DNA of 64,000 nt from a virus (IMGVR_UViG_3300009008_000005:96001-160000); one strand, 5' to 3'. Positions 604-37,933 are shown, counted from the first letter of the stretch. The notes: generated by a model from the sequence alone, not told the origin. Numbers and translations: made by a program.

Positions 604-826
604 AGTCCTGAGCAAGGAACTGGTGGACCTGTCAGATCAGGGCTACAGAATGTCCTACGAGGACCAGAAAACATTCCTTCAAGCCATCGTTGAAGGGTCT
701 AGCCGTCTTGGGATAGAGGCTAAGAAGATAAAGCCTAAGGAGGTAAAGAAGAAGGCCGTGCCTCCTAAGAAGCCTAAACCTGTCGGCTCTCGCCTAACCA
801 GAGTAAAGAAAAGGCGTAAAGGCTAA
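581..826 (+). CDS. Lys-rich hypothetical protein ending GSRLTRVKKRRKG
   Basis: SD-like GGAGGA upstream; followed by a terminator. Confidence 0.7.
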   Translation: MSEEKKPRVLSKELVDLSDQGYRMSYEDQKTFLQAIVEGSSRLGIEAKKIKPKEVKKKAVPPKKPKPVGSRLTRVKKRRKG

Positions 827-850
827 ACAAGGGGGCTACGCCCCCTGTTT
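825..850. terminator. bidirectional intrinsic terminator
   Basis: AAACAAGGGGG-CTACG-CCCCCTGTTT between convergent genes. Confidence 0.75.
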
Positions 851-853
851 ACC

Positions 854-1162
854 TCATGGTTCCTCTCCCCGAAGCTCTGCAGGGATACTGAACATCCAGC
901 GGGTGTTGGCCGGTCTTCCCGACCACTTGTTGAGGATCACGAAGCTCTCCATGTTGCGAGGCATGATATCAAGCCTTCCGTCCAAATCCGAAGGCATGAC
1001 GCACACCCGAACACGGGCCTTCTTGTCCTTGACCTTATGGCGGAGGATGTTCTCGATCACGGGACGGAACATCTCGAATGGTACAGGTGAGCGGAGAGCA
1101 GCGACCCTCGTCTCCAACTCCGTCTGTACCTCGACAGCCAACTCCGAGTACTTCTCTATCAT
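854..1162 (-). CDS. hypothetical protein
   Basis: Start moved to MIEKY, which has an SD (GGAGAGGAG) and overlaps the upstream stop. Confidence 0.65.
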   Translation of the reverse strand: MIEKYSELAVEVQTELETRVAALRSPVPFEMFRPVIENILRHKVKDKKARVRVCVMPSDLDGRLDIMPRNMESFVILNKWSGRPANTRWMFSIPAELRGEEP

Positions 1163-1419
1163 CGTCGACTCCTCTCCACGTCCTCCTCCACAAAACGCAT
1201 CCAGCATTCCGAAGGATCCGGGATAGAGCACCCGAGTTCACCAGGGTCACCAGGTTGCGTCCAATCGCAGAAGGACGGTTCGTCGCCAGCTCCGAAGAAC
1301 ACGCCCCTCGGGCATTCGCCTCCTCGGAGGTCACAGACCATGTCGGCCAGAGCGTACTTCACCTCATCGTCAACGGACCGGATCATCCGGTGTGGAGTCC
1401 TAAGTGACCTGCCGCTCAC
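1159..1419 (-). CDS. Cys-rich hypothetical protein
   Basis: GTG 1 nt after the upstream TAA; fills the operon gap. Confidence 0.55.
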   Translation of the reverse strand: MSGRSLRTPHRMIRSVDDEVKYALADMVCDLRGGECPRGVFFGAGDEPSFCDWTQPGDPGELGCSIPDPSECWMRFVEEDVERSRR

Positions 1420-1420
1420 G

Positions 1421-1945
1421 TTATCGTCTCGTTGTGGCATCGTGTCCTATCTCCTGCTCTACGTTCTCCAGCTCCGCTGCTATCTGCGTCGCAGCCCTTC
1501 GCTGAGCGAGGAGGATCCAGCAATCCCTTGTGGGATCCTGCTGGCATCCATCTCCGTCGAAGGTGCAGAAATCTCTGATCTCCGACGTGGGCATGTTCTC
1601 CTCGTCATGAAACCGGTTCAGAGGGCACCCATCAGCGTCAGCTAGGAAGTCTGCGAGGAACAGGTTCATGCGGGTCCGCTCATCGAGGTTCGCACGGAGC
1701 CGTAGGTTGTCCAGAGACAACTCAGTGACGGGTCGAGCAGGTCGGACTCCTGCAGGCTCTTCCGCCACGTCCACCAGGTAGGAATCCAACTCATCGATGC
1801 GGGTACCAGCGAGGACCTCATTGGCCTCCCACCGGTATGTAGGTCCGGATGCCTGCCTCGAACCGGAAGGACCAAGCATGCTCGACCCACCGGAACCCGG
1901 TCCAGTCCTCGGTCCTTGATACACATTGTCATCATCTATCGGCAT
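1421..1945 (-). CDS. hypothetical protein
   Basis: ORF in a tightly packed operon, start MPIDDD. Confidence 0.7.
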   Translation of the reverse strand: MPIDDDNVYQGPRTGPGSGGSSMLGPSGSRQASGPTYRWEANEVLAGTRIDELDSYLVDVAEEPAGVRPARPVTELSLDNLRLRANLDERTRMNLFLADFLADADGCPLNRFHDEENMPTSEIRDFCTFDGDGCQQDPTRDCWILLAQRRAATQIAAELENVEQEIGHDATTRR

Positions 1946-2624
1946 TTTTCCATCTCTCCTCTGCTGCATTCCATACTGATTCTCTTATACCCGATGCAGC
2001 TATCTCCCGAGCCGTTGTCTTGGCTGGGCCTTCTTTACGTCTACGGAGCCTCTTGAACCTACTCCCAGGCTCGTCCAAGAAGTCTATCGACCACTTGATC
2101 TCGATCTCCTGTTCCTTGGGTTTTTCCTCAGAGAATAGTTCCAGGCGTTCTAACCCAGCCAGATTCCCGAACCCCATCAGTGGACGGCGTAAAGACTCTC
2201 GCCAGTTGTAGTCCTCCATAGCGGACTCCCTCACACCAGGTGCAAACGCATCACCATTGAGGTTCGGTATACCTGCAACCGTCTGTTCCCAGGAGGAATA
2301 AATGATCCCATTCCTATTGGGGTTAGGTCTACGGAAGTCGCCACCCTGTCCGTGGAACCAGGGCTCGGGCTTCGGCGGAGTCCAGAGGAGGCTAATCGAA
2401 TCCCGATCCATCCAGGGCTTTACGAGCAAGGAGTAGTGCCGATACCACGCCTCCATCTGTTTCTGATATGCCCTGTATGCATGGAGAGCTTCTGCGAGGT
2501 TCTGATAGATCCGATCTGACCTCACGGCAGTACGTGGATGCAAAGGTTCGGTCGGGTGCTGCACGATAGAGGTGTCGAAGAATCGTGGATTTACGTTCCG
2601 GTAGTAGCTCTCTGGGATAGGCAT
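1932..2624 (-). CDS. hypothetical protein with GSRFKRLRRRK motif
   Basis: 230-aa ORF with GGAGGAG SD. Confidence 0.75.
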   Translation of the reverse strand: MPIPESYYRNVNPRFFDTSIVQHPTEPLHPRTAVRSDRIYQNLAEALHAYRAYQKQMEAWYRHYSLLVKPWMDRDSISLLWTPPKPEPWFHGQGGDFRRPNPNRNGIIYSSWEQTVAGIPNLNGDAFAPGVRESAMEDYNWRESLRRPLMGFGNLAGLERLELFSEEKPKEQEIEIKWSIDFLDEPGSRFKRLRRRKEGPAKTTAREIAASGIRESVWNAAEERWKNADR

Positions 2625-2801
2625 CTACTCCTCCGCTGTGAAGGGCACAACCTCTGAGCCGGGGTTCTCATCCGATACGTCCTGCGCCTCTTCCCGTGTG
2701 GAGAAGGCATTCCACCAGCCCGTTGTTGTGGTCCACCCGTAGTTGAAGTGATCCCACCACATTCCGGCCTCATTCCGCACAAGGTACAATGCCTCATCCA
2801 T
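2625..2801 (-). CDS. small Trp-rich hypothetical protein (58 aa, not in ORF track)
   Basis: MDEALYLVRNEAGMWWDHF...AEE*; GGAGGT SD; abuts the next gene. Confidence 0.65.
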   Translation of the reverse strand: MDEALYLVRNEAGMWWDHFNYGWTTTTGWWNAFSTREEAQDVSDENPGSEVVPFTAEE

Positions 2802-2812
2802 CTCACACCTCC

Positions 2813-3046
2813 CTATCCGTTGTCGTTGTGACTGGCCCAGTGATCGAGGAGCCGTATCATGTCGGCCTTGCTCTTCGGCGTGGGTTTGGAAAAGATCTCG
2901 GCGTCGTGGTCATCACAAGGGGTGTAGCCGCAATCGCCTTCCTTGTCCCAGTTCCGCTTGCGGCGCTTGGCCTCCTTGAGTGATCCTACGTAGTCGAACC
3001 CACAAGAGCCTTCGCAAGGACAGTAGTAATCAACTCTATAAATCAT
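2813..3046 (-). CDS. hypothetical protein
   Basis: GGAGG SD; ATGA overlap with the upstream stop. Confidence 0.7.
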   Translation of the reverse strand: MIYRVDYYCPCEGSCGFDYVGSLKEAKRRKRNWDKEGDCGYTPCDDHDAEIFSKPTPKSKADMIRLLDHWASHNDNG

Positions 3047-3198
3047 GCTCCCCTCCTCTCAGCGACTGGTTTCATAAGCTCTAGGCACGCATAACCCAGC
3101 ATCCCCATGAAGGCCACGGCCCCTAGCGGATAGAGCATTACCATGGTTAGGTTATAGACCCACGTAGAAGGCTGCTTCCTATAGCTCTTGTTGATCAT
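3043..3198 (-). CDS. small membrane protein (51 aa, not in ORF track)
   Basis: MINKSYRKQPSTWVYNLTMVMLYPLGAVAFMGMLGYACL...; hydrophobic span; couples to both neighbours. Confidence 0.55.
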   Translation of the reverse strand: MINKSYRKQPSTWVYNLTMVMLYPLGAVAFMGMLGYACLELMKPVAERRGA

Positions 3199-3484
3199 CT
3201 TCCTCTCCTTCTAGGCGGAACGACCCTACACCAACGCAGGCTAGGTAATACCCGCCCCCTACACGGTCCAGAACAACGCAGGGGACCCACTTATGGGACT
3301 CTGATTTTCGAGCCTCAGGACCGAAGTCAGTGACACGAACCTCTACAACCTCTCCCCACGATGTCGTCATGGTCGGAGGAATCGGAGGCGCTGCGCAAGC
3401 CTCTGACTCGAACATCACCGCCCAGATCACTAGGGCGATAATGACTGCGTAGAGAAGCGCACATAAAGCTTCAAGTATCTTCAT
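3179..3484 (-). CDS. membrane-anchored hypothetical protein
   Basis: Start MKILEALCALLYAVIIALVIWAV is an N-terminal TM or signal segment. Confidence 0.65.
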   Translation of the reverse strand: MKILEALCALLYAVIIALVIWAVMFESEACAAPPIPPTMTTSWGEVVEVRVTDFGPEARKSESHKWVPCVVLDRVGGGYYLACVGVGSFRLEGEEDDQQEL

Positions 3485-3908
3485 TTTTACCCTTCTTGCG
3501 GGGCTGTGCCTCATCGAGCCATGCGTCCACCTTCTCTGTTTCGATCTGCTTGCGGGCGGCGGCGATGTAGCGGTCAAAGAACGCCTGGAACGCCTTGGCA
3601 CCACCTTCGTTTATGCACGCCATCTCCAGCGCCAGACGAAACGCCTGTATCTCAGCCAGATGCCGCTTACAGTCGTCCACGTAGTTCCCTAAGGTCTTCC
3701 TCAATAGCTCCATCTCCCACTGCTTCTCCAAGACGAGAAGGGTGGCTCCCTGCTCCATGGCGATATCTGAGGCGAGGGCATGATTATCTGTTATTCCTAT
3801 AGGGAGATCTTCTGGCCACCACCCGGCGTTATCGTCGGAGAAGTCATAGAACTCCCTCCCCTCAGCAGCCTCACGAGTGGCAGCATAGTACTTTCTAAGT
3901 TCAGCCAT
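3471..3908 (-). CDS. hypothetical protein
   Basis: Start MAELRKY with GGAGG SD. Confidence 0.7.
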   Translation of the reverse strand: MAELRKYYAATREAAEGREFYDFSDDNAGWWPEDLPIGITDNHALASDIAMEQGATLLVLEKQWEMELLRKTLGNYVDDCKRHLAEIQAFRLALEMACINEGGAKAFQAFFDRYIAAARKQIETEKVDAWLDEAQPRKKGKNEDT

Positions 3909-4113
3909 CAGATTCCTCCGGGAAGATGTTGTAGACCCGCACAAGGATGATCTTCCGGTTAGCCGGTAGACCACCGTATTTCTTTAGCCAGTAGTTCTCT
4001 ACCTCCGAGTCCAGGCAGCGGTCTGGATCGATGCTAACCGGGACGTCTATGATCTCTGTATCCCACGTCATGTCCTCCCACGCACGGAGAACTTCACAAC
4101 GCCATGTACTCAT
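3901..4113 (-). CDS. hypothetical protein
   Basis: AGGAGG SD; overlaps neighbours. Confidence 0.7.
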   Translation of the reverse strand: MSTWRCEVLRAWEDMTWDTEIIDVPVSIDPDRCLDSEVENYWLKKYGGLPANRKIILVRVYNIFPEESDG

Positions 4114-4730
4114 TGCTCCCTCCTTGCACGTAGTCTATGTAGACGGCCCAGGACCCTCTCACGTTCAGGTTTGCCTGTAGCCTCGGCTACGATTTTCTCT
4201 GTCTGCTCCGGGGTTAGATTCAGAGGCTCAAGGTTCTGATCCCAGGTACCTGGACTCCAGGGATCGCTCGGCGGGTGCGAGATACGTCTCGTAGGTGGCG
4301 GTCCCGAAGGGGCTGGGCGAGTATGTGTCTTTCCCATCTGGTTCATCATTCCCGCCATCTGACTGTGGCGGGATGTCTGTGGGGCGGCTGGGGGTACGGA
4401 GACATGATACTGTGCCGCCTGAGCATCTAGCTCCGCATCGGAGCTTATCCCTAAGGAGTCCTTCAACCCCTCACGCATGACCAAATTCGCTTCCTCTAGC
4501 TGCCGCTTCGCCTCCATTTCCTGTAAGCGTATCTCCCTCTTGGCTAGCCGCTTCTTCCGCTCCCTGTAATCTCGTATGAAGACGAAGATCCTACCTAACA
4601 GTAGGATCGACGCATACATACCAGCTACTATCCCGAAGGCGGCTAGTATGGTGTAAAACTCTTCCATACTCCCCGATGTCGCTCGCTCACCGCCCCCAGA
4701 GGGGCCCACACTCAAACCTATATGGAACAT
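4110..4730 (-). CDS. single-TM protein ending GRLHRLRARREQ
   Basis: TM segment ILAAFGIVAGMYASILLLGRIFVFI; SD and ATAAG motif upstream. Confidence 0.7.
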   Translation of the reverse strand: MFHIGLSVGPSGGGERATSGSMEEFYTILAAFGIVAGMYASILLLGRIFVFIRDYRERKKRLAKREIRLQEMEAKRQLEEANLVMREGLKDSLGISSDAELDAQAAQYHVSVPPAAPQTSRHSQMAGMMNQMGKTHTRPAPSGPPPTRRISHPPSDPWSPGTWDQNLEPLNLTPEQTEKIVAEATGKPERERVLGRLHRLRARREQ

Positions 4731-4757
4731 ATCTGCCTCCCAGTTTCTACGGAGGTC

Positions 4758-5231
4758 TTATACCTCTTCTTTACGTTTGTGTAGACGAGCTAGCCTTCCC
4801 TCTGGCGGGACGGTATCGATGCTCGGATACTTCTTCCGGAACTGCTCAATAGACCTCGCATCCGCCGCACCAATGATGAGCGTGGCCCCTGCACGGACCA
4901 ATGCGTCGTAGCGTGCGATGAAGTGTGGTAGATCCTCTCCGGCCTTCCGCTCTAAGACCACCCCTAGGGGATGCTCCTTGACCTCGAACTGAGATAGGAA
5001 CGCTTCACGGCTCTTAGCAGGCGGAACGTAGTCAGGCGGCTTTGGCTTCTGCCTCACGGTCTCTGCCTCAGGTTCGTTACCTGGGTGAGGCAGTTCCGGT
5101 GGTATTCGTATAGTCATAGGGGGCCCTGTAGGCTCGATGTCTACTAAGCACTCGATCTTAGGTTCGTCCGACGTAGTCAGCTGCTTTTTGGCGTTTTTCA
5201 GGAATCCGATTACTTTCTGTAGTAAGCCCAC
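4758..5231 (-). CDS. hypothetical protein ending GRLARLHKRKEEV
   Basis: GTG start with AGGAGG SD. Confidence 0.7.
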   Translation of the reverse strand: MGLLQKVIGFLKNAKKQLTTSDEPKIECLVDIEPTGPPMTIRIPPELPHPGNEPEAETVRQKPKPPDYVPPAKSREAFLSQFEVKEHPLGVVLERKAGEDLPHFIARYDALVRAGATLIIGAADARSIEQFRKKYPSIDTVPPEGRLARLHKRKEEV

Positions 5232-5571
5232 GTCGCCTCCTTAGACGTACTAGCCTCGACCCGGCTTGGCCTAGCTTCACGATTCTGGCCCTATGGAGCC
5301 ACTTTGGGGTTAGGTGGCTGACAGCCCCCATCCCCAAGAATGTGCAATTAGTTATGGACGTGTTCGCCTCAGAGTAGACTTCAACATGTAGACCCTGTAG
5401 GAGACAGCCGAGTAGAGAGGCTCCCTCATCCAAGTAGATATAGACAGGGTACTCCCTTCCATCGAAGTCACACCTAGTTACCTCTGCGCCCTTAGCTACT
5501 ACCACGAGAGAGGGCTCATCGAATATCCGGCGATCAATCTCATCAAATTTTCGAATCAAAACCTCTTGCAT
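5158..5571 (-). CDS. hypothetical protein with GSRLVRLRRRR motif
   Basis: AGGAG SD; 3' end overlaps the next gene by 74 nt. Confidence 0.7.
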   Translation of the reverse strand: MQEVLIRKFDEIDRRIFDEPSLVVVAKGAEVTRCDFDGREYPVYIYLDEGASLLGCLLQGLHVEVYSEANTSITNCTFLGMGAVSHLTPKWLHRARIVKLGQAGSRLVRLRRRRGLTTESNRIPEKRQKAADYVGRT

Positions 5572-5582
5572 GGCTAACTCCT

Positions 5583-5614
5583 AAAAAGGGTTGGGACGCC
5601 CGAAGGCGTCCCGA
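5583..5614 (-). terminator. intrinsic terminator
   Basis: GGGACGCC-TTCG-GGCGTCCC then AACCCTTTTT on the minus strand. Confidence 0.75.
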
Positions 5615-5620
5615 GTCAGT

Positions 5621-5827
5621 CTACGCCTTGAAGAACTGCGGTGCCTGACGGCACAGCTCGTCCATGTTCGAAGCGGGACCGACCATACGACCACCCACGG
5701 GGACGGCGCACTGGTGACCCTGGACTGAGATGATGGAGACACCATCACTCGTCGCCCAGATCGGGTTGTGGATGGGGCCCTTGTAGGTGAGAATCACCTT
5801 GTCCCCGACGTACTCAGCTGTGACCAT
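5621..5827 (-). CDS. hypothetical protein
   Basis: GGAGGT SD. Confidence 0.7.
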   Translation of the reverse strand: MVTAEYVGDKVILTYKGPIHNPIWATSDGVSIISVQGHQCAVPVGGRMVGPASNMDELCRQAPQFFKA

Positions 5828-5836
5828 ACGAACCTC

Positions 5837-5998
5837 CTAGCTTACGTCCATTTCCTCGTCAACGGCCCTGTTGACGAAGTCCTCGAACGTGTCATTGTTG
5901 TTCTGGTTATCTACGTACTCACAGATCACGTGAAGCATGGAATTCTCGTTCCAGCCCGTATGATCCACAGCCTCTTCGAGAATCTGCATCGCATTCAT
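5837..5998 (-). CDS. small acidic hypothetical protein (53 aa, not in ORF track)
   Basis: MNAMQILEEAVDHTGWNENSMLHVICEYVD...; fills the operon gap; SD present. Confidence 0.6.
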   Translation of the reverse strand: MNAMQILEEAVDHTGWNENSMLHVICEYVDNQNNNDTFEDFVNRAVDEEMDVS

Positions 5999-6011
5999 GG
6001 CTCCACCCTCC

Positions 6012-6455
6012 TCATTCCACCTCCAGCATGTCCAGCAGACCTATAACCTCGGCGGTCTCGAACAAGCTGTACTCTGGGAAGTCTGGGGTATCTCCCCAAG
6101 TATGGTCCCCTACGACGACCACCTTCTTCTTTGCGACGATGCGCCACAAGGTGTTCCCCATCTTGCCCGACCAGGCATCTCGCAGCTCCCGCAGGAAGAC
6201 ATCCGGATCAATGGCGTCCCACATGTCAACAAACTGGTCGAGGTCCATGGCGTAACAATCAATATTCTCCCAGAGCTTCTTCGGATACCCCTTGGGGGGA
6301 TCCAACCAGTCTCCGGCCTCCTCACACTTCTTGTTCCAGTCGAGGATGATCTTCCGGTACTTGCGGAGATACTCCTTGGCCATCACGCACTGGTCGTGTG
6401 TCCCTAGGATCTCCTCAGGTCCGACGAAAATGTACCCCACAAAACTGCGCCCCAT
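6012..6455 (-). CDS. hypothetical protein
   Basis: GGGAGGT SD; ATAAG motif 34 nt upstream. Confidence 0.75.
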   Translation of the reverse strand: MGRSFVGYIFVGPEEILGTHDQCVMAKEYLRKYRKIILDWNKKCEEAGDWLDPPKGYPKKLWENIDCYAMDLDQFVDMWDAIDPDVFLRELRDAWSGKMGNTLWRIVAKKKVVVVGDHTWGDTPDFPEYSLFETAEVIGLLDMLEVE

Positions 6456-6555
6456 AGCAGACCTCCCGTCTTGGTTACGCCTGCCTTATACCGGGTTTCG
6501 AATCAATGCTACCACTAAGTCTTGTGTGTTCAAGCTATTTATTGACCTTGTGATA

Positions 6556-6582
6556 TAAGAAGGGGGCTTATGCCCCTTCTTA
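6556..6582. terminator. stem-loop, bidirectional terminator-like
   Basis: TAAGAAGGGGG-CTTATG-CCCCTTCTTA. Confidence 0.6.
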
Positions 6583-6858
6583 CCTCATGGGCGGACGCCC
6601 GGCTCGCAGGCTTCTCCGCAAGCTCTAACAGCTTCCGGGTAGCACGTAGTGTCTACCTCACATTCTAAAGAGGTGGATCATTCCTCCTCGAAGGTGGGCC
6701 CCGGCTGTAGATGCGCTCCGAAGAGATTCTCCATCTCACCGGAGAGTCCCTTGTCATCATAGGTGACACAAGCTTCACAGCGGAGCAGACGACTACATCG
6801 AGATCGACCTCACAACGCCGGGAGCGAGGTGGCACATCACGAAGTCGGGGAGGAGAGT

Positions 6859-7044
6859 ATGAGTGTCCCGATAGAAGAGCGGACGTTCCCGGTCCTCTGC
6901 AACTGTGGAAACACCGTATTCAAAGTCACGTTCACCCGTGCCCTCTACACCGAACCCGGCGAGGGCAGAGGAGAGTACAACTTCCACTGCACGAACTGTA
7001 GGGAGACTGACGACGTCTACCACGACAGCAGGGAGGATGTATGA
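6859..7044 (+). CDS. small zinc-ribbon-like protein
   Basis: CNC...CTNC; GGAGGAG SD; ATGA overlap with the next gene. Confidence 0.7.
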   Translation: MSVPIEERTFPVLCNCGNTVFKVTFTRALYTEPGEGRGEYNFHCTNCRETDDVYHDSREDV

Positions 7045-7454
7045 ACTCACGCCAGACAGAATCCCAGATGCGTCTCCGCTCCCTGAGAGGGATCGTCATC
7101 GCCGTTGACTTCGACGGAACGGTCGTCACCCACGACTACCCGGAAGTGGGCTCTGATGTGCCCCACGCTGTGGACGTCCTGAAGGCGTTAGTGAAGAAGG
7201 GTGCCAAGATCATCCTCTACACCATGCGTAGCGGTCTACACCTGCGCCGTGCGGAGGCGTGGTATAAGCTCCACAACATCAAGCTCTATGCCTCCCAGCG
7301 GAATCCCACGCAGGACCGTTGGACCGACTCCCCGAAGTGCTATGCGAACATCTTCATCGATGATGCAGCTCTTGGGTGCCCCCTCATAGAGACCGATGGT
7401 CGAAGCGTCGTGGACTGGCTCAAGGTGGCAGAGTACTTCGATCTGGAGGTGTAG
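7041..7454 (+). CDS. HAD-superfamily hydrolase/phosphatase (BT0820-like, capless)
   Basis: Motif I IAVDFDGT, motif II LYTMR, motif III/IV KCYANIFIDD. Confidence 0.85.
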   Translation: MNSRQTESQMRLRSLRGIVIAVDFDGTVVTHDYPEVGSDVPHAVDVLKALVKKGAKIILYTMRSGLHLRRAEAWYKLHNIKLYASQRNPTQDRWTDSPKCYANIFIDDAALGCPLIETDGRSVVDWLKVAEYFDLEV

Positions 7455-7742
7455 ATGGACCCAGAGATTGCGAGTGCCCTAGATATCTTCATCGGGAGGA
7501 CCCTCACAAGCGCCCTACACAACAATGCGGACTTCCAGGAGGCCGTTAGGCTCAACCAGGTTGCAAGGGAGCTTCCCGTTCGTCCCATCTGGCATCCGCT
7601 CTATAACCACCTACAGGACACCTACCCAAACCGGAACTTCATCACCGAAACAAGGCTCCACCCGGACCGAAAGTTGGTTGTGAAAGTCATGTGGTTAGAC
7701 GAGGACGGCTACTATGAAGCTGACGTAGACGAGTACGAATAA
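7455..7742 (+). CDS. hypothetical protein
   Basis: Abuts the HAD gene; GGAGGT SD. Confidence 0.7.
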   Translation: MDPEIASALDIFIGRTLTSALHNNADFQEAVRLNQVARELPVRPIWHPLYNHLQDTYPNRNFITETRLHPDRKLVVKVMWLDEDGYYEADVDEYE

Positions 7743-7750
7743 GTAGTACA

Positions 7751-7780
7751 AAAACCTAGGGGGCCTCGCCCCCCTTCTTA
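7751..7780. terminator. bidirectional terminator-like hairpin
   Basis: AGGGGGC-CTC-GCCCCCC with TTCTT and AAAA flanks. Confidence 0.6.
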
Positions 7781-7874
7781 CCTTGAACTTCTTCTGTCTT
7801 CTCGTCCCGCTTGTGCTCGTTCTTTATAACAGCTTCGAGGGCCTTCCGCATTGCATCGTTGAAGTGCTCGTCGG

Positions 7875-8153: not shown

Positions 8154-8195
8154 CGTCCTCCCCATAATGGAATCGGTTTTGCGCATGCAAAACTT

Positions 8196-8230: not shown

Positions 8231-8249
8231 TCCACGACTGGAGGTACAC

Positions 8250-8640: not shown

Positions 8641-8645
8641 CTGTT

Positions 8646-14253: not shown

Positions 14254-14713
14254 CCCTTCTCCTTCGGATGCGTTCCAGTCTAGACATATCTGAGCCTGGA
14301 AGGTTACTTATGTCATAGCCGCCTGAGGCTGTCTCTTTGATGTCTTCACGCTGGGCCTGCCTACGAGCCCAGCCTCGCACGATGTACCCAAGGCAGAACA
14401 TCTTGGCCTCTGCGGGGGACAAGTGCTGGATGAGGTCTGCGTCCACTCCGCATTGTGTCATGCTTCTAGTGACGGACTGCTTCATAGGAAGCGTCCACTC
14501 ATCGTCCATGGCCCTCTCTATGGCCTGGATCTGCTCTGCGGTGAACGTCTCGGGTATCTCAATGATGGGCATCTGATCTATGGCCTCCTCGACGTACTGC
14601 ATGAATAGATCGTCCTCTACAGCCCTGATCTCCTCTGCGGCATCGTCTGTTATGTCGGCCCATAGGTCATCCCTCTCAGCCCTGTAGAAGGTCTTAAACA
14701 GCTCGTCAGTCAA
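14135..14713 (-). CDS. acidic hypothetical protein with SRLERIRRRR motif
   Basis: 3' end overlaps the next gene by 119 nt. Confidence 0.65.
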   Translation of the reverse strand: MTDELFKTFYRAERDDLWADITDDAAEEIRAVEDDLFMQYVEEAIDQMPIIEIPETFTAEQIQAIERAMDDEWTLPMKQSVTRSMTQCGVDADLIQHLSPAEAKMFCLGYIVRGWARRQAQREDIKETASGGYDISNLPGSDMSRLERIRRRRDGTDREESGVREGGVGDVRGEESLPGDGNIGGGLSVFMD

Positions 14714-14960
14714 TAGGGATCCTCATGCCTTCACTTACCTTATCCCACGAGCCATCCGCACCCCTGTCCACGAATCTATGGTCAGGATCATCAGGGGACA
14801 GAGTCGAACCGAACACGGCGGTCCACACCCTCTCCCTAATCTCCTTCGACTCCAGGAGCCTCTGCGCATACTTCAGAGACCTGTGATTCATGTTGTCCTT
14901 GAGGAGTGAGGCAATCATCTGAATTCCCAGTTCCTCTAGCGCTTCCGTGTCTAGGGTCAT
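14706..14960 (-). CDS. hypothetical protein
   Basis: AGGAGG SD; ATGA overlap. Confidence 0.7.
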   Translation of the reverse strand: MTLDTEALEELGIQMIASLLKDNMNHRSLKYAQRLLESKEIRERVWTAVFGSTLSPDDPDHRFVDRGADGSWDKVSEGMRIPID

Positions 14961-15310
14961 TGTTTCCTCCTACTCTTCAGGCGCTCTAAACGGCTACCTG
15001 TCGGCTTGTCGACGAACTGGTCTTCGATTACCTTCGTGTAGGTTCCCTTATTGAGCATCTCAGAGCCCCAGCCCCTCACAAGAAATCCGACAATAAAGGC
15101 CTGTAGCTGCTTTAGGTTCCCACGAAAGTGGTGGAGGACATTCTCTTCGATACTGTTCGCATCTAATGCATCCATGCAAAGGACTAAGAGCTTGTCGTAG
15201 TCCTTGCACTCCATGATCTTCTCGACCAAGGGGAGTCTCAGGTGATGAGGAGTCAGCTTAGACACCTTTCTTTTAGGTGCAGGCCCACTCCAGGCATCCA
15301 TTCTAGCCAC
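14957..15310 (-). CDS. hypothetical protein ending GSRLERLKSRRKQ
   Basis: Operon packing. Confidence 0.7.
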   Translation of the reverse strand: MARMDAWSGPAPKRKVSKLTPHHLRLPLVEKIMECKDYDKLLVLCMDALDANSIEENVLHHFRGNLKQLQAFIVGFLVRGWGSEMLNKGTYTKVIEDQFVDKPTGSRLERLKSRRKQ

Positions 15311-21359: not shown

Positions 21360-21489
21360 CTCTGGTGCAAAAAAACTCTGGCCTCTCTTTGCTTAAAGAA
21401 ATACATGATCCAGGTATAAGAGAATCAAGCCGAACCAGCCGACTCCCATATTTTGGTTTGTCCGCTGCCGAGGCTTTTATATAATTGTG

Positions 21490-21625
21490 GGCGTGCGTTG
21501 CTGCTCAAACAGTTGTCCTGGATCCTGACTCCGCACCAGGGGAAGGGCACTGTATCTGTGACGGGGAGCCGTAGGAGCCTTGATCCAGTCATGGAATAAA
21601 GGAGGGGGATTAGCCCCCCTTCTTT
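21490..21625 (+). ncRNA. candidate small RNA
   Basis: ORF-free stretch between TTGTCC-N16-TATAAT (21458-21485) and a terminator at 21598-21625; complementary CTGGATC/GATCCAG arms. Confidence 0.35.
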
Positions 21626-27131: not shown

Positions 27132-27357
27132 GACCGGGATCGGTAGGTCCAGCGTCTGCGAGAGGGGAAAGAGGTGCTCGGAATGCAAGGGTGATCTGGT
27201 CAAGTTCTACACCGGGGACTTCTATCTCGGAGACGAGGGGAAGCTCGTGTTCAAGATCTGCTGGAAGTGCCGCTGCGGTAGTGCCTACTACAGCGAGGAT
27301 GGAGGCAGAGACGCACCGCCCAGGCTGAAGAGAGCTGCGAAGCTCGTTCTGAAGTAA
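27115..27357 (+). CDS. zinc-ribbon small protein
   Basis: CSEC...CWKCRC. Confidence 0.65.
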   Translation: MSLLSKTGIGRSSVCERGKRCSECKGDLVKFYTGDFYLGDEGKLVFKICWKCRCGSAYYSEDGGRDAPPRLKRAAKLVLK

Positions 27358-28018: not shown

Positions 28019-28321
28019 CTAGGGCCTGGGGTTGCGTGCCGCAAGTCTCTGCAACCTTGTGCCCTTGCTGAAAACCGTGTCCCCTTCTTTAGGGATGGGC
28101 CAGTCTATGTTGAAAGTAACGTCGGGTGTGACGCATACCGGGTAGCTGTTTGAACCTCGCTCCCCTAGACAGGTGACCTTTGCGTGCGTGATGTAAGGAG
28201 TAAATTCAAACTCGATATCTGCAAGCTGTTGGTCGGTGGCCCGGTCCAACACTGTCAGCTGGATGCCGCCACCCACCCCATTCATGGTGAGGTGGAGGAC
28301 GACACCCTCAGACTTATACAC
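28019..28321 (-). CDS. hypothetical protein ending GTRLQRLAARNPRP
   Basis: Operon packing. Confidence 0.7.
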   Translation of the reverse strand: MYKSEGVVLHLTMNGVGGGIQLTVLDRATDQQLADIEFEFTPYITHAKVTCLGERGSNSYPVCVTPDVTFNIDWPIPKEGDTVFSKGTRLQRLAARNPRP

Positions 28322-31700: not shown

Positions 31701-31773
31701 TTGAATCCTGGGCCACTAGTTGGTGGTCCGTGTGCACGGATTTGCCATAACTATCCTCTCAAGGAGGGAACAT

Positions 31774-31986
31774 ATGATCTGCAAGGTCATGCGTATCGGC
31801 AGCGGGACCCGTGAGGTCGAGATCCCGGACGGCTCGGCCGTCCGCAACGCCCTGACGGCGGCTCAGTTCGAGACCCGAGGCGCCTCCGTCTCCGTGAATG
31901 GCATCGAGGCCACCATGGACACGGCACTGCAGGACGGCGACACCGTCAGTCTCGTGGCGAAGGTCGAGGGCGGCACCTCCGTCTAG
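31774..31986 (+). CDS. ubiquitin-like beta-grasp protein (ThiS/MoaD/Ub fold) with GG + TSV extension
   Basis: 70 aa: VEIPDGSAVRNAL...SVSVNG...DTALQDGDTVSLVAKVEGG-TSV; AAGGAGG SD. Confidence 0.85.
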   Translation: MICKVMRIGSGTREVEIPDGSAVRNALTAAQFETRGASVSVNGIEATMDTALQDGDTVSLVAKVEGGTSV

Positions 31987-32024
31987 GGGGACCATACTCG
32001 TCTCGCTCCGATGAAGGAACATGT

Positions 32025-32052
32025 GGGGGAGGGGGGTTCGCCTCCCTCCCCC
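32025..32052 (+). terminator. stem-loop after the Ubl gene
   Basis: GGGGGAGGGGGG-TTCG-CCTCCCTCCCCC; weak U-tract. Confidence 0.55.
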
Positions 32053-32129
32053 TAAGTTTCTCCCTAAAAGTATACCCATAAGTGGGATTATCTATATGTG
32101 TCTTGGGATGGATGGACAAGGAGGCAAGA

Positions 32130-33644
32130 ATGCCAGCAGGAGTTCAAGCAACCCGCCTACACGCCGACATGGTGTCGGTCTTGGGGGAACTCTCCTCTGA
32201 GATGAATGTAGGCATCCGAGCGGAGACGGTGAATCTCTCTCGGTTCTTCTCGCAATTCCCCGGAACGGAGGGCGACAGCGTCAGGCTGTTCTTCCACAAC
32301 GGGGAGCGTGGAACGCAGCAGGAGTTCAGCTTCGTCGTGGACGGAACTGAGTGCAAGGTCAAATTCGCCATGGCCCAGCACAATCCGAACCTCTTCGAGG
32401 AAGGGGTCGAAACCCAGCTGCGGATCCCTGTCGGTGGCGGCGAATCCACAGACCTGATCGGTGTCTACGGAGGGACACAGATCATGTTCGGTGCAGACCT
32501 CAACAACCTCTTCACACACCCGGAATACATCGAGGGAGATGTGACGGCCAAGGACTTGGCCAAGCACATCCTGAAGAGTGCCCTCTCCGGAATCATGGAC
32601 AGCATCGAGAACCGTGGGCGGGAGGAGTTCGCAGACACCCTCATGACCATGTACAGGGCGAGCGTGGCCCTGTGGCGGGAGACCATCACGAACAACGACG
32701 CCTCGATCGACAACCACCTGCGCCAGCTGAGCGAGCTGTACACTCGCAACCAGGCCACTCGGGCGCAGATCAACGCCTTCGACGGCACCATGCAGACCGC
32801 ACGGGACAAGGCGAAGGAGGAGTACGAGAAGCTCGTCCGACTGGTTGGAACCTCCTTGGAGGAAGTCCAGGTCGTCAACCGGCGTCTGCAGCTCCGTACG
32901 TCGGAAATGCACATCGAGTACGACGGGATCGATTACAACATCGGCCGAATCGTGATCGACACCCCCATCCTCGGCAACTCTGGCGAGGTGACAATGTTCA
33001 GCTACGACGGCAGGGACCAGAACGGATGCGCCCACCCGCACGTCAGCGGTGGTCGGGTCTGCTGGGGAAACGTGGGAGGCACGATCACGGAAGCGCTCTC
33101 CACAGGGGAAGTGCTCCAGGCTGTGTTGGCCATGCTCGCCTACCTCCAGTCGTACAACTCCGAGGATGCCTACACGGACATCCAGAACTGGGGCGATGCC
33201 TACGACCGTAACCAGGCCTGTCGTGAAGACCACAGCACGGATGAGTGCGCTCGCTGCGACAGTGAGGAGTGCCCATATCGGGAGGAGAGCCGACAGGAGT
33301 GCTTCGACGACCACACCCGTGACGAGTGTATCCGCTGCAACTCCTGTCCCCTCGCAAATGAAGCGGCAGAGAACTGCCTACGTGAACTGCTCTCGACCAA
33401 CACTCTCGGTAGGTGCATGGAAACTTGCACCGTCAACACGTGCAGATTCTTCCGGAACCCTGTTCGCTGCAGAAACGTCATCGGATCCTGTCCGACTGCT
33501 TGCACTGCTGACACCTCGTGCTATCGACACCCGTCGTATTCTTCGGGTGACCCCGGCGGTGGTGGAAGTTCAGAGATCTCTGTGAGCCGCAACATGAGCA
33601 TCACCGGAAGCGGTGACCAGTTCGACATCGTGAGGAGGGCCTAA
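32130..33644 (+). CDS. coiled-coil + E2/UBC-fold conjugating-enzyme-like domain + Cys-rich tail
   Basis: HPHVSGGRVCWG matches the E2 HPN-x(n)-C active-site signature; AAGGAGG SD. Confidence 0.75.
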   Translation: MPAGVQATRLHADMVSVLGELSSEMNVGIRAETVNLSRFFSQFPGTEGDSVRLFFHNGERGTQQEFSFVVDGTECKVKFAMAQHNPNLFEEGVETQLRIPVGGGESTDLIGVYGGTQIMFGADLNNLFTHPEYIEGDVTAKDLAKHILKSALSGIMDSIENRGREEFADTLMTMYRASVALWRETITNNDASIDNHLRQLSELYTRNQATRAQINAFDGTMQTARDKAKEEYEKLVRLVGTSLEEVQVVNRRLQLRTSEMHIEYDGIDYNIGRIVIDTPILGNSGEVTMFSYDGRDQNGCAHPHVSGGRVCWGNVGGTITEALSTGEVLQAVLAMLAYLQSYNSEDAYTDIQNWGDAYDRNQACREDHSTDECARCDSEECPYREESRQECFDDHTRDECIRCNSCPLANEAAENCLRELLSTNTLGRCMETCTVNTCRFFRNPVRCRNVIGSCPTACTADTSCYRHPSYSSGDPGGGGSSEISVSRNMSITGSGDQFDIVRRA

Positions 33645-34849
33645 TGACGGGTACGACAACAACGAAGCCTACCGGAACCACCAACACGACCGGGAGCCGG
33701 GTGAACCCGGACCTGGTCAAGCCTCACGTCTATATCATGCCCCGTGCCGATGCCAAGATCTGGCACTGGGTCCGAATGGCGACAGGTGAGGTCTCCGGCC
33801 TCGGCCTGGTCGACGTGATCGACGGACAGATGGTCGTGTCCGATGTCTTCCTGCCCAAGCAGGAGTGCACCTCGGCGGACACGGACCTGGACCAGCAGGC
33901 GGTGGCACAGCTCATGATGGAGCTGGACAACGAAGGCGTGGACCTGGGGAAGCTCCGGTTCTGGTGGCATAGCCATGCCGACATGGAGGTGTTCTGGAGC
34001 GGGACTGACACGGGTACCATGCAGGAGCTGAGCGGGGGCGACACGTTCCTCCTCTCGATGGTCGTCAACAAGAAGCACGACCGGAAGCTCCGGGTGGACA
34101 TGTTCAACCCCTTCAACATGATCCTCGACAACCTCGGGGCCAGCGTCCTCGACCTCTCCGATGAGGAGCTGAAGGAGGAGTGCAAGAAGGCGTTCGACGA
34201 GAACGTCTCCGAGGGCTACTCCGGCTACTACTCTGGGTCGACCCACAACCGCAGCGGCGGACGGTCCTCCACCAATGCCACCCACTCGGTCACCTCCGCC
34301 ACACGGAGGAAGATTGGGTTTCAGGCAGGGAAAACGCCCACCTCGCAGATCTCGGTCTGGAATTCCAAGGACGGAGTGTGGGAGGACCACTACACGTACG
34401 CCGAGGGGGAGCCGAAGATCGTCACGTCGTCGGGTTCGGTCGTCGGAGTAGGTGCGTACCTCTCCAAGGAGGCCGAGGCCATCGCAGAACTCGCCCACGA
34501 GGAAGGGTGGGGAAGCTGCATCGAGCAGCGTGGTGACGAGGACGCCAACGAGGTCGCTCCCATCGAGCCCGAGGAACCCACCGATGAGGACGAGGAGATC
34601 ACGTACAAGAAGGTGGACGACATCACGGACCTGGTCTGCGACGCCTGCGGGAACTACGTGCTGGCCCTCGACCCCGAGGACATGATCACGATGGAGGGTC
34701 CCAAGGGCACGAACCCGCTGAAGCGGCAGGACATCACCCTGTACTGCGCAGACTGCGGCGAGGCACACCACGTGAACGTCCTGATGAAGTACGTCGATGG
34801 GGAGTGGATCCCCAAGCAGTGGGTGGAGGGAATCCATGTCGAAGCCTGA
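33644..34849 (+). CDS. JAB/MPN+ (JAMM) metallo-isopeptidase with C-terminal Zn ribbon
   Basis: E(VSG)...WWHSHADMEVFWSGTD = HxH-x7-SxxD; CDAC...CADC. Confidence 0.9.
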   Translation: MTGTTTTKPTGTTNTTGSRVNPDLVKPHVYIMPRADAKIWHWVRMATGEVSGLGLVDVIDGQMVVSDVFLPKQECTSADTDLDQQAVAQLMMELDNEGVDLGKLRFWWHSHADMEVFWSGTDTGTMQELSGGDTFLLSMVVNKKHDRKLRVDMFNPFNMILDNLGASVLDLSDEELKEECKKAFDENVSEGYSGYYSGSTHNRSGGRSSTNATHSVTSATRRKIGFQAGKTPTSQISVWNSKDGVWEDHYTYAEGEPKIVTSSGSVVGVGAYLSKEAEAIAELAHEEGWGSCIEQRGDEDANEVAPIEPEEPTDEDEEITYKKVDDITDLVCDACGNYVLALDPEDMITMEGPKGTNPLKRQDITLYCADCGEAHHVNVLMKYVDGEWIPKQWVEGIHVEA

Positions 34850-35522
34850 GATCGACACCACCATCTACTGGCGGCAGATGGACGTGCTGCCCATGAAGAA
34901 GGTCCTCTCGGTCCCCGTCACCGTCGTCGGTGCGGGGGCCATCGGGAAGGCCATGGTCGAGGTCCTCTCCGGGATGGGGATCAACGACATCACCGTGTTC
35001 GATGCGGACAGCGTCGAGCCCCACAACCTTCCCAACCAGGGCTACCGGCCCTGCGACGTCGGGAAGCCGAAAGTCGAGGCGCTGGCCGAGATCGTGGAGG
35101 CCCTCACGGGATTCAAGATCAAAGGCATGAACGAGTGGTTCACGGACCAGAAGGTGTCCGAGATCACCGTGTGCGCAGTCGATAGCATGGACACGAGGAT
35201 GAAGCTCTGGGAGGCCATAGCTCCCCAGCTCCCGAAGCTCTACATCGACATGCGGATGGGAGCTGAGATCGGGCAGATCTTCTATGTGAACCCGTGGAGT
35301 CCCGGCTCCAAGCGGCAGTACGAAGCGAACCTGTTCCCGAGCGATGAGGCCGTCGAGGCACCATGCACGGAGAGGGCGACCAAGTACTGTGCGACGGGTA
35401 TCACGTCATTCGCAGCGGGCGGGGTGGCGAACTACCTCCGTGGTGAGGCGCTTCGTCCGCTCGTGCTGGACTTCAGGTGCGGTCAGGTCATCGATCTTCC
35501 GAAGGCCACCGAGAAGCCTTGA
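34836..35522 (+). CDS. ThiF/MoeB/E1-family adenylating enzyme
   Basis: YWRQ; VVGAGAIG; DADSVEPHNLPNQ; KPKVEAL; CAVDS; IDMRMG; APC (candidate thioester Cys); GGAGG SD. Confidence 0.9.
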   Translation: MSKPEIDTTIYWRQMDVLPMKKVLSVPVTVVGAGAIGKAMVEVLSGMGINDITVFDADSVEPHNLPNQGYRPCDVGKPKVEALAEIVEALTGFKIKGMNEWFTDQKVSEITVCAVDSMDTRMKLWEAIAPQLPKLYIDMRMGAEIGQIFYVNPWSPGSKRQYEANLFPSDEAVEAPCTERATKYCATGITSFAAGGVANYLRGEALRPLVLDFRCGQVIDLPKATEKP

Positions 35523-35535
35523 GTCCTCCATCCCA

Positions 35536-35557
35536 GGGGACCCCTTCGGGGGTCCCC
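35536..35557 (+). terminator. stem-loop closing the Ubl operon
   Basis: GGGGACCCC-TTCG-GGGGTCCCC. Confidence 0.55.
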
Positions 35558-35613
35558 GGAGTAGGGGAAACCTATATTTTATGCTATAAGGATAGTCCAT
35601 AGGCGGAGGTAAT

Positions 35614-36282
35614 ATGACTGAGCAAGAAATCATCCAATTCGTTCACAGGCTTGAACTGCCCAAAATCACTACGGATACCGGGTGGGGAATCAGCATCAAG
35701 GTAAGCAAGATCTGCCCAGAAGAGCTGCAGGAGGAAGTCCGTGTCCTATTGTTCCTAACGAATGAGCTACTGTCCAAAGATGTGGACATGACTCTTGGCT
35801 CTGCCCCAATGCAGTTCTTCGGGAAGTTCGCACAGATCTTCGGAGAGATGTCTGGTGGTATTCAAGCGGCCACAGATAACCGGCAGGACATGCTGGTCGT
35901 GGACACGGAAGACCTCCCAGATGATGCAGACCCTGAAGAGATCTTCAGGGTAATGCAGTCGGCAGTAAAGGAGGCACTGAAGAGTTCACTCTTCCAGCTG
36001 TGCAACCCTGAGGAGCCTCGCATCCTCCTTCACAACCCTCCCTTCGTCATCAAGATCCACGAAGGCTCCGTAACCGTAGAGCTTATCCCGAACGTCGTGC
36101 TCAATGCTCTGGACTATCCGTCCGTCGAAGAGCTGTCTTCTGAACTCACAGAGCTGTGGCTCAACTCCAACTTCGTCGGAATCGTGAGTCTCATCTGGGC
36201 ACTGCAGGCTTTCGACAAGCTGCACTCCAAGTTCGCTGAGTTATCTATGAAATGGGCAGCTCCGCAGGTCCTGAATAGCTAG
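35614..36282 (+). CDS. hypothetical protein
   Basis: GGAGGT SD; ATAAG 28 nt upstream. Confidence 0.8.
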   Translation: MTEQEIIQFVHRLELPKITTDTGWGISIKVSKICPEELQEEVRVLLFLTNELLSKDVDMTLGSAPMQFFGKFAQIFGEMSGGIQAATDNRQDMLVVDTEDLPDDADPEEIFRVMQSAVKEALKSSLFQLCNPEEPRILLHNPPFVIKIHEGSVTVELIPNVVLNALDYPSVEELSSELTELWLNSNFVGIVSLIWALQAFDKLHSKFAELSMKWAAPQVLNS

Positions 36283-36297
36283 TATTTCACCGAAATA
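36283..36297. repeat. TATTTC-N3-GAAATA palindrome
   Basis: TATTTCACCGAAATA immediately after a stop codon. Confidence 0.8.
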
Positions 36298-36362
36298 CTG
36301 CACGCTCCGACACCCCTAAAAATCGGTATAAGAGATATAGAAGCCTGGTAAAGGAGGTCTTC

Positions 36363-36983
36363 ATGCAGCTGCACCAGTGCGTGAACTGGAAGGAGCTTCT
36401 CGCTGGGAGGGTAGAGACCGGGCGGTCAGTGTTCTACGCCCTGCAGAGTGATTCCGATGAGTTCATATTCGTTCCCGCAACAATGCAACGGGCAGCGGTG
36501 TTTCCGCTGGTACTTCGAGGGCGTGACTCGCCCTCGCTACACGGTTCTGCGCTAACGTGGAAATTCATCGAACGAGATATGGGGTTGGGCCAGTCCGAAG
36601 TGCAGTCTCTGCTACTCTTCGGGTTGATCGGACTCTCTTCAAAGCTGAAAACTGATGAGGGAGCAAATGTAGGAGAAATACTCTCGGAGGCGCTGCCCTT
36701 CGACGTCGAGTTCAGTGAGGATACAAATGACTTGGAGCCATTCTCCAGACTGGGTGCACCTGCATGGATGATGCGGGTTGCTACCAGGCACCAGCTGGGG
36801 GTCAAGGAGATCGACATGAAGGGGCTGGTGACGGCCCTGCTACCTACACCATTGGAAGTGAGCACGAGATCTGACTGGGGATATGACACCCGGAGCGAAG
36901 TGCTGCTGCTTGCGCATGGGGTAGACTGGAGTACGATGGACTTTCTCCGGGAGAGGAACATCGGAGTGTGGTACCGCCGGTAA
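36363..36983 (+). CDS. hypothetical protein
   Basis: AAGGAGGT SD; ATAAG 35 nt upstream. Confidence 0.8.
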   Translation: MQLHQCVNWKELLAGRVETGRSVFYALQSDSDEFIFVPATMQRAAVFPLVLRGRDSPSLHGSALTWKFIERDMGLGQSEVQSLLLFGLIGLSSKLKTDEGANVGEILSEALPFDVEFSEDTNDLEPFSRLGAPAWMMRVATRHQLGVKEIDMKGLVTALLPTPLEVSTRSDWGYDTRSEVLLLAHGVDWSTMDFLRERNIGVWYRR

Positions 36984-37027
36984 CGGTGGGGAGGGGGCCC
37001 AGTCCCCTCCCTTACTCGGGAGGATGG

Positions 37028-37933
37028 ATGAAGAAGAACGTCGTAGAATGCGATGGGACCAAGGTCCTGATTGAGCAGATACGTGGGGAGTCCGTGAACG
37101 ACATCCCACGAAACGTGTACAGAGATCCGGACACGATGGATGTATGGGACGCAGATACTATCCCCCCTGTAGGTAAAGGTCACACCTACACCGCCGTCGC
37201 CAGGATGACATATAGGAACCAGGGTAGAATCTTCGACAACGATGACCCTGTCTACCTTGTTACGAACAAGCTCCGTGCCTGGGACGAGGAGTCAATGCCG
37301 TTGCTGGATACCTGTGGGGCCCTACCTGCCCAGGTTGTGGCCAACTCCACAATGAAGAAAACGATAAGTGGTTTGCGGCCGGGTGCAGTGAAAGAGTCTG
37401 TCCTCATTCCCGCTGCGACCTTTGCACACTTCTTGAGCGTAGGGGAATCCGAAGGCTGGGACATCACTGTTGCAGAGTGGGATAAGGATACCCAGTGGGA
37501 AGCAGAAGAACTTCTGAAGAGAGTTGAAGGCGGTGACAAGTCCGATGAGAGTGTGGAGGAGCTGCGTAGACTTGCAGTGATCGCTGCAAATACCGATGAC
37601 CCTGGATACATGGACGACGCAGGGAGGAGACTATCTCTGAGGCCTGTAGTGGCGAAGATAGAGGCCGCTCTCCGGGGGCGCAAGGTGTCCAAGCGAGATA
37701 GGATACGGTATGCAGAATTCCTGCTAGGTGAGATGCGGAAGGCATTCGACTGGGCGAAGGAGGCTCATCTTGAAGGGGCTACCATTGTCGTCACACTACA
37801 AAAAGGAACGCTGAGAATGGATGCGGATGCCATCGCTTACCAGTCCGAGGAGCTGTTCGATTCTAAGGCAGCGATACCTGCGCAAGGTAGTCGCCTAAGT
37901 CGTCTTGCGAAGAAGTCGGGTAGTGTTTCTTAG
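37028..37933 (+). CDS. hypothetical protein ending GSRLSRLAKKSGSVS
   Basis: Start MKKNVVE with GGGAGG SD. Confidence 0.75.
   Translation: MKKNVVECDGTKVLIEQIRGESVNDIPRNVYRDPDTMDVWDADTIPPVGKGHTYTAVARMTYRNQGRIFDNDDPVYLVTNKLRAWDEESMPLLDTCGALPAQVVANSTMKKTISGLRPGAVKESVLIPAATFAHFLSVGESEGWDITVAEWDKDTQWEAEELLKRVEGGDKSDESVEELRRLAVIAANTDDPGYMDDAGRRLSLRPVVAKIEAALRGRKVSKRDRIRYAEFLLGEMRKAFDWAKEAHLEGATIVVTLQKGTLRMDADAIAYQSEELFDSKAAIPAQGSRLSRLAKKSGSVS

Follow-up and report, generated by a model that had tools for sequence, protein, structure and literature searches.

A short basic peptide recurs on eleven proteins of an uncultured phage, nine of which are encoded in the stretch of DNA analyzed here (the window, i.e. 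the 64,000 nucleotides from base 96001 to 160000 of the contig IMGVR_UViG_3300009008_000005, which has 180,825 bp in total) and two elsewhere in the same genome. This peptide, in the following called the tag, consists of a Pro-rich linker, the core [G/S]-[S/T]-R-[L/F]-x-R-[L/I/V] and two to four basic residues. It is enriched far beyond chance, it is selected at the protein level, it is mostly situated at the ends of flexible tails, and it is conserved in the family of one carrier, a protein of 301 residues that we call the founder. The nine window instances had been pointed out in a preliminary description of the window, and this observation is confirmed; new in the present study are the two extra carriers and the founder family of eight members, all of which possess the tail. 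The tag probably serves as a protein-level docking motif for one shared protein partner, and we assign this reading, in which a single reader is inferred, a probability of about 0.6. Coordinates refer to the window unless they are marked as genome positions or given on an L-numbered contig.

All nine peptides were found at the positions and on the strands originally reported. Each carrier open reading frame (ORF) is by far the best coding frame of its stretch when six frames are compared by a coding-potential model trained on long ORFs of the same genome. Enrichment was tested on 243 ORFs obtained by lenient calling. The pattern G[ST]R[LF].R[LVI] has seven matches, six of them in well-supported genes, while 0.06 are expected from whole-protein shuffles and 0.05 when blocks of 20 residues are shuffled; hence, the motif is strongly enriched over a composition-matched null. 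A looser tag pattern gave 11 matches compared with 0.8 expected in shuffled proteomes, and the bare core R[LF].[KR][LIV] gave 20 compared with 9.6 +/- 3.0. Half of these bare-core matches (10/20) are located within the last 50 residues of a protein, which make up 21% of all residues. Moreover, a profile was built from the nine window instances and scanned over the six frames of the whole 181-kb genome. Its scores are clearly bimodal: the nine training instances reached 29-36 bits, two instances not used for training 27-28 bits, and the next best match genome-wide 15.8 bits. Leaving out each of the nine in turn still resulted in scores of 8.7-25.5 bits for the omitted instance, compared with 2.1 bits for the 95th percentile of C-terminal tails in the proteome.

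The tag had been interpreted as a protein-level motif rather than a DNA repeat, and the codon usage supports this view. Serine is encoded by AGY as well as TCN codons and arginine by CGN as well as AGR codons, and the codon identity among pairs of instances sharing the same residue amounts to 25% at the six conserved positions, compared with 21% expected from local usage (p = 0.12). The next start codon follows the tag at distances of 25 to 159 nucleotides, and two carriers have no close downstream gene. Codon use as expected and variable spacing together indicate that selection acts on the peptide. In four to five instances the Arg run is written as AGGAGG or AGGAGA and positioned 5-9 nucleotides before the next start codon; as already suggested, this overlap with a Shine-Dalgarno sequence accounts for the Arg run alone and not for G-S-R-L-x-R-L. 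A shared mobile DNA cassette as the source of the tag can be rejected, because nucleotide similarity is absent outside the motif and the codon identity is as expected.

Regarding its anatomy, the tag is preceded by a segment rich in proline, which makes up 18% of the ten residues upstream compared with 5.4% in the proteome. The two aliphatic positions are kept in all eleven instances of the phage and the Arg/Lys run in nine of them, and the net charge of the tag varies between +4 and +7. The core is in every case followed by 6-10 variable residues. Six of the nine window tags are placed 11-13 residues from the stop codon, while the other three have 32-48 residues beyond the core. Two of these three extensions overlap the next gene and have a worse coding score than the frame of that gene. 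Judging from these scores, in the two overlapping cases the tag most likely represents the functional end of the protein, followed by apparently unconstrained read-through. Altogether, ten of the eleven tags are found at the functional C-terminus and one is N-terminal. The initial statement that the motif resides at or near the C-terminus is therefore correct for most instances, but not for the newly found N-terminal one and only loosely for the three long extensions. The N-terminal instance and the long extensions exclude a reader that requires a free carboxyl group. Correspondingly, C-terminal degrons that need a free carboxyl end, such as the ssrA type or the PDZ/Tsp type, are ruled out, since the motif does not end at the alpha-carboxylate.

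The founder provides the evolutionary evidence. A word-based search with this protein returned only the self-match, and its orthologues were reached by position, via the neighboring AAA+ gene in related contigs. An exhaustive profile search among 1.84 billion representative proteins found only eight family members, which are 21-28% identical to the window founder. All eight keep S/G-R-[L/F]-x-[K/R/S]-[L/I/V] about ten residues from the C-terminus, mostly followed by Lys or Arg. The Arg of the tag belongs to the 16 invariant columns of the founder alignment, while the approximately 20 residues upstream of the tail are not conserved. Hence, the tail is retained in every homologue of the founder. 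An AlphaFold model calculated from the family alignment has a mean predicted local distance difference test (pLDDT) score of 80 and a fold that extends to about residue 273; the segment 276-288, with pLDDT values below 50, is disordered, and the tag appears as a short low-confidence helix (residues 290-293) on a tail that is separate from the folded part. Foldseek gave no significant match for this fold, nothing usable was obtained from the ESM Atlas, and VIA-align returned nothing beyond generic three-helix bundles (Z up to 7.6). The founder sequence did not match any PRTRC model. From the sequence comparison, the tag appears to be ancestral in the founder family and the ten further carriers appear to be specific to this phage. 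All instances and further features are compiled in Table 1.

Table 1. Instances of the tag, tails resembling it, and the conserved gene block around the founder.
Feature	Position	Strand	Carrier or context	Remarks
Tag	785..826	+	C-terminus of 81-residue ORF 581-826	G-S-R-L-T-R-V and basic run, stop, then G+C-rich hairpin
Tag	2034..2066	-	230-residue ORF 1932-2624	Phe replaces first Leu; 32 residues beyond with poor coding score
Tag	4110..4148	-	C-terminus of 206-residue ORF 4110-4730	Arg run is AGGAGG for next gene; one predicted membrane helix (maximum Kyte-Doolittle 19-mer 2.18, residue 34)
Tag	4758..4799	-	C-terminus of 157-residue ORF 4758-5231	
Tag	5230..5262	-	137-residue ORF 5158-5571	First gene after terminator 5612-5593; 23 residues past tag overlap next gene, whose frame scores better
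Tag	14255..14284	-	192-residue ORF 14135-14713	38 residues past tag overlap next gene (start 14253), whose frame scores better
Tag	14957..14998	-	C-terminus of 117-residue ORF 14957-15310	
Tag	28019..28063	-	C-terminus of 100-residue ORF 28019-28321	Thr variant, weak basic run; leave-one-out score 8.7 bits
Tag	37886..37933	+	C-terminus of founder, 301 residues, 37028-37933	Sole carrier with homologues
Tag, new	L007:3113-3184		21 residues before stop of ORF 49740-50183 (genome)	Outside window
Tag, new	L007:3153-3188		N-terminus of next gene, start 50152 (genome)	Good ribosome-binding site
Marginal tail	27316..27357	+	P-P-R-L-K-R-A-A-K of Cys-rich 106-residue ORF 27037-27357	Not significant, 2.3 bits (about 95th percentile of C-terminal tails)
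AAA+ tail	40850..40988	+	Arg-rich end of AAA+ protein	Not counted as tag; overprinted on N-terminus of RecA-like gene
Gene block	31720..42813	+	Assigned by Pfam and NCBIfam	Synteny in five relatives

The carriers range from 81 to 301 residues in size, and in all-against-all BLAST comparisons the tag is their only common part with the exception of one pair. The proteins encoded by 14135-14713 and 14957-15310 are similar over about 65 C-terminal residues (E 1e-4), are separated by one gene and have tags with the same core and Glu at the variable position; from this similarity they are probable paralogues. The assumption of otherwise dissimilar carriers hence applies to most of them but fails for this pair. 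Furthermore, the strong terminator 5612-5593 (- strand) is followed by a leftward operon whose first three genes all encode carriers, and the two new carriers outside the window are adjacent genes. The operon cluster, the adjacent pair and the paralogues indicate that local duplication contributed to the spread of the tag, and the eleven instances represent fewer than eleven independent events. Regarding the relatives, about 60 kb around the conserved gene block were read in four related contigs, including 40.6 kb of the closest one (AAA+ protein 48% identical; about 45 small ORFs). Neither Pfam nor PHROG gave a match for any carrier or for ten neighboring genes, among the viral contigs searched no close relatives were found for the carriers or for the capsid protein, and a near-homologue search with ORF 1932-2624 returned nothing. 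The phage collection searched did not contain a relative at the DNA level. Rfam families and tRNA genes were absent from the window in the respective scans, and the head and tail genes are located on its right side. In the first part of the window (1-16000) sigma-70-like promoter matches were rarer than in shuffled sequences (3 compared with 7.5 +/- 3.0). Two matches to G-S-R-L-x-R-L without a basic run were observed at 21421..21592 (- strand), in two frames (21421-21447 and 21560-21592, 140 nucleotides apart); the 520-bp stretch without coding signal between divergent genes (21055-21580) holds both of them. By chance alone, the whole genome should contain about 0.2 strict matches, and these two may be decayed carriers, tiny ORFs or chance occurrences.

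The founder is situated in a conserved block of genes that encode a ThiS-like ubiquitin-like protein (Ubl), an E2-like protein, a JAB protein, a ThiF-type E1, p222, p206, the founder, p113, a ParB-like protein, an AAA+ protein of the Ycf46/Cdc48 type, a RecA-like P-loop protein, a radical-SAM protein (Fer4_12) and a DUF1257 protein. The order is the same in all readable relatives, namely Ubl, E2-like, JAB, ThiF, then after further genes p206, founder, a protein of about 100 residues, ParB-like, AAA+, RecA-like, DUF2997, radical SAM and DUF1257. A more distant jumbo-phage contig, whose AAA+ protein is 36% identical, has no other block gene within 10 kb. For the ParB-like protein, a match to TIGR03734 (PRTRC_parB) was obtained at E 1e-11, which does not reach the curated cut-off, and the ThiF and ThiS matches have E values of 1e-22 and 2e-6, respectively; a ParB-family protein, a ThiF-type E1 and a Ubl, the combination that characterizes a PRTRC-like cassette, thus occur together around the founder. 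In two relatives the ParB-like proteins (L002:8997-10004 and L008:11435-12364) also have basic tails, one with an AT-hook-like R-K-R-G-R-P and one with a tag-like P-T-R-L-V-R-A-M followed by Lys (8.8 bits). The product of the gene downstream of the founder, p113 (38051-38392, + strand), has a sub-threshold Pfam match to C1orf109-like proteins (E 0.014; 15.7 bits compared with a cut-off of 27), which is too weak to be used. The human member C1orf109 is a cofactor of an AFG2-type AAA+ ATPase.

Weaker versions of the motif had also been claimed for the AAA+ tail and for ORF 27037-27357, and neither claim could be upheld. The latter tail reaches only 2.3 bits. The AAA+ tail is the top non-carrier C-terminal tail of the proteome with 7.9 bits, and the AAA+ proteins of the relatives also end with basic residues, but it is a shifted-frame reading of the overlapping gene. 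The RecA/KaiC-like P-loop ORF 40748-41662 (+ strand; likely start 40811) overlaps the AAA+ gene (39351-40988) by about 180 nucleotides, the Walker A motif of the RecA-like protein lies inside the AAA+ tail region, and the coding score favors the RecA-like frame past approximately 40850. The RecA-like protein is 40-41% identical over about 284 residues to its counterparts in three relatives (L002, L004, L008), and the aligned region begins in each of them within the 3' end of the AAA+ gene; the start assigned by the gene callers in these contigs is too late. Since the Arg run of the AAA+ tail is a shifted reading of Gly/Pro/Lys codons of the P-loop (Walker A), it was not counted as tag. The AAA+ orthologue of one relative (P0007, L004:10001-12664, 887 residues) contains an intein, as seen from a faint PF14890 match and a tblastn match that is split in two. 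Many cellular AAA+ homologues of the Ycf46 type (P0008-P0045) end with R-[K/Q]-[L/I]-[E/D]-[L/V/M], which is distinct from the phage tag.

How could the tag work? In the proposed mechanism, a flexible Pro-rich linker and a Gly/Ser/Thr cap would be followed by a basic amphipathic helix of one to two turns, R-[L/F]-x-[R/K]-[L/I/V], and a further two to four basic residues. At i+1 and i+4, the aliphatic side chains would be exposed on one side and flanked by arginines, a shape that would fit into a hydrophobic groove with acidic residues along its rim, provided by a single partner. Such a peptide would be functional in internal or terminal position without the need for a free carboxyl group, and it would bring ten lineage-specific proteins together with the founder to the partner of the founder. 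Because the founder keeps the tag over deep divergence, the same degree of conservation is to be expected of the reader, which might be encoded in the block, belong to the universal components of the host or be a polyanion. Our best guess is a product of the founder's own block, which would take roughly half of the weight given to docking as a whole and is hence tentative. The candidates comprise p113, p206, the ParB-like protein, the Cdc48-like AAA+ unfoldase, the RecA-like ATPase, the E2-like protein and the JAB protein, each of which is individually unlikely to be the reader.

Several points weigh against docking to a single protein. The evidence for conservation comes from one carrier family with eight sequences, and the carriers other than the founder are orphans. 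Besides the founder, no product ending with the tag was found in the approximately 60 kb read from the four relatives, and accordingly the spread to ten more proteins is either lineage-specific or the counterparts are located in unread parts; a second expansion that arose independently and could serve for comparison is absent from the sequence read. The codon CTA is used for 8 of the 15 Leu codons in the motif compared with 22% of the leucines in the remainder of these genes (p about 0.009), which hints at shared descent or a small bias at the nucleotide level. The proteins named as readers are no more than candidates, and a tail as basic as this one might associate with DNA, RNA or membranes even if no specific protein reader existed.

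The last point leads to a polyanion anchor, by which the carriers would be held on phage DNA or RNA in a non-specific manner and without a dedicated reader; a complex of ParB with DNA is one conceivable target. The high positive net charge of the tag agrees with such a role, as do the ParB-like protein and the RecA-like ATPase in the founder's block, the Lys/Arg-rich tails that also occur on p206-family and ParB proteins of the relatives, and the Lys-rich founder tails of these phages. However, an invariant Arg and aliphatic residues at the fixed positions i+1 and i+4 are not expected of generic nucleic-acid-binding tails in proteins that are only 21-28% identical, and ORF 28019-28321 as well as the founder keep the core despite weak basic runs. 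Arginine-rich RNA-binding motifs such as those of lambda N, HIV Rev and Tat have 4-6 Arg/Lys within about 12 residues at a disordered end; in contrast to the tag, they are without fixed aliphatics and a cap. A cognate RNA or DNA element was not seen in the Rfam scan of the window, a de novo search not having been made. In the moment, we regard the polyanion anchor as unlikely, albeit worth keeping in mind.

It might also be envisaged that the tag is a phage-encoded address by which proteins reach a remodelling module of the phage itself. In this case, the Ubl-E1-E2-JAB and Cdc48-like AAA+ machinery would have the founder as its native client or adaptor, and copying of the tag onto ten orphans would deliver these proteins for timed unfolding, tagging or removal. 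If true, this would amount to a proteasome-like temporal programme run by a bacterial virus, a scenario that we consider quite unlikely. It is only the position in the block that makes the AAA+ protein a candidate reader. Its active AAA domain is closest to the D2 domain of Cdc48/VCP. The N-domain (residues 1-240, window 39351-40070) was modelled with a pLDDT of 92.8 as an alpha/beta domain with a helical lid, and it resembles the AAA+ modules of TRIP13, Rpt subunits, NorQ and RFC; according to this model it is a degenerate AAA+ module, which is not among the known peptide-binding domains, and the whole protein a predicted pseudo-tandem AAA+.

A membrane-targeting amphipathic helix that attaches the carriers to the inner face of the cell membrane represents another, improbable explanation. 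The membrane-targeting sequences of MinD and FtsA are short basic amphipathic C-terminal helices after a flexible linker, and the tag has the same general build. Such helices present at least four large hydrophobic residues on one face. The tags of this phage have only two (11/11), with mostly Arg or Lys at i+5, while three or four of the founder homologues possess an additional hydrophobic residue (the third or fourth) at i+5 or i+8 and thereby a clearer hydrophobic face. Moreover, the carrier encoded by 4110-4730 already has a transmembrane helix. Similarly improbable is a signal for processing or degradation, i.e. a protease site of the R-x-x-R type or a degron for host ClpXP, Lon or FtsH. 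The apparently unconstrained extensions of three carriers could be removed by cleavage, basic terminal tags of the MuA type serve as signals for ClpX, and the carriers belong to orphan-gene operons, a set that may need timed removal. However, no protease gene was linked to the tag, and the N-terminal and internal instances exclude degrons that depend on a free C-terminus. A signal of this kind would also be a special case of docking to a particular reader, hence its share overlaps with that of docking. Finally, a mere by-product of a nucleotide signal at gene junctions, such as a Shine-Dalgarno sequence, translational coupling, a promoter or an RNA element, is very improbable: the Shine-Dalgarno-like Arg runs, the CTA excess, the two core matches in a stretch without coding signal and the AAA+ tail, which demonstrates that overprinting can generate Arg runs in this genome, might be taken in its favor, but both codon families are used for Ser and Arg with overall codon identity as expected, all strong profile matches are in the coding frame of real ORFs, the spacing to the next start is not fixed, and the founder tails of the relatives use Lys codons followed by a spacer of 118-254 nucleotides.

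Short peptides that recruit unrelated proteins to one hub are known from other systems. The sliding-clamp-binding C-terminal tails of gp43, gp33 and gp55 from T4 and RB69 belong to the general class of clamp-binding or PIP motifs. As with the tag, one short peptide is present on flexible ends of unrelated phage proteins and serves a single hub; however, clamp tails are hydrophobic and acidic, whereas the tag is a basic R-L-x-R-L that also occurs in N-terminal and internal positions. Compared with the generally known consensus sequences (QL[SD]LF, the T4 LDFL tails and the PIP box), the tag fits none, and a clamp-binding motif was rejected. By sequence, the nearest known motif is MIM1 with the consensus (D/E)xxLxxRLxxL(K/R), whose second half is matched by R-L-x-x-L-[K/R] of the tag. 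MIM1 is a helix of ESCRT-III subunits that is recognized by Vps4, an AAA+ ATPase, through the MIT domain of the latter (PMC7240154, PMC11218997). Both peptides are Leu/Arg-rich C-terminal helices on flexible tails of several carriers, and the reader of MIM1 is tied to a classical-clade AAA+ protein, but the upstream half of MIM1 is acidic and Leu-containing while the tag has Pro, Gly, Ser and Thr there. The idea that the phage AAA+ protein recognizes the tag as a MIM1 through an MIT domain was rejected, because its N-domain is predicted to be a degenerate AAA+ module and not an MIT three-helix bundle; the carriers as ESCRT-III proteins (Snf7 fold) were likewise discarded, given the absence of Pfam or PHROG matches. 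VIM and VBM are Arg-rich helices through which cofactors bind to the N-domain of p97/Cdc48. They resemble the tag as short Arg-rich helical peptides on unrelated proteins, and the phage AAA domain is closest to Cdc48/VCP D2; however, the tag does not fit their consensus and the N-domain of the phage AAA+ protein has a fold different from the Cdc48 type. Searches of the literature on Ycf46, PRTRC, DUF1257 and phage Ubl/ParB yielded no paper that describes the gene block, the founder family or the motif in functional terms.

Most genes of large uncultured phages are orphans without any functional clue. Through the shared and selected tag, eleven of these proteins are connected with one putative node and with an uncharacterized conserved block of genes. 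An identified reader would give the eleven carriers a common context and would show the role of the founder family, and a portable tag of 12 residues with a defined reader would be a useful tool. Furthermore, the tag bears on the question of whether large phages organize their proteomes by private address labels.

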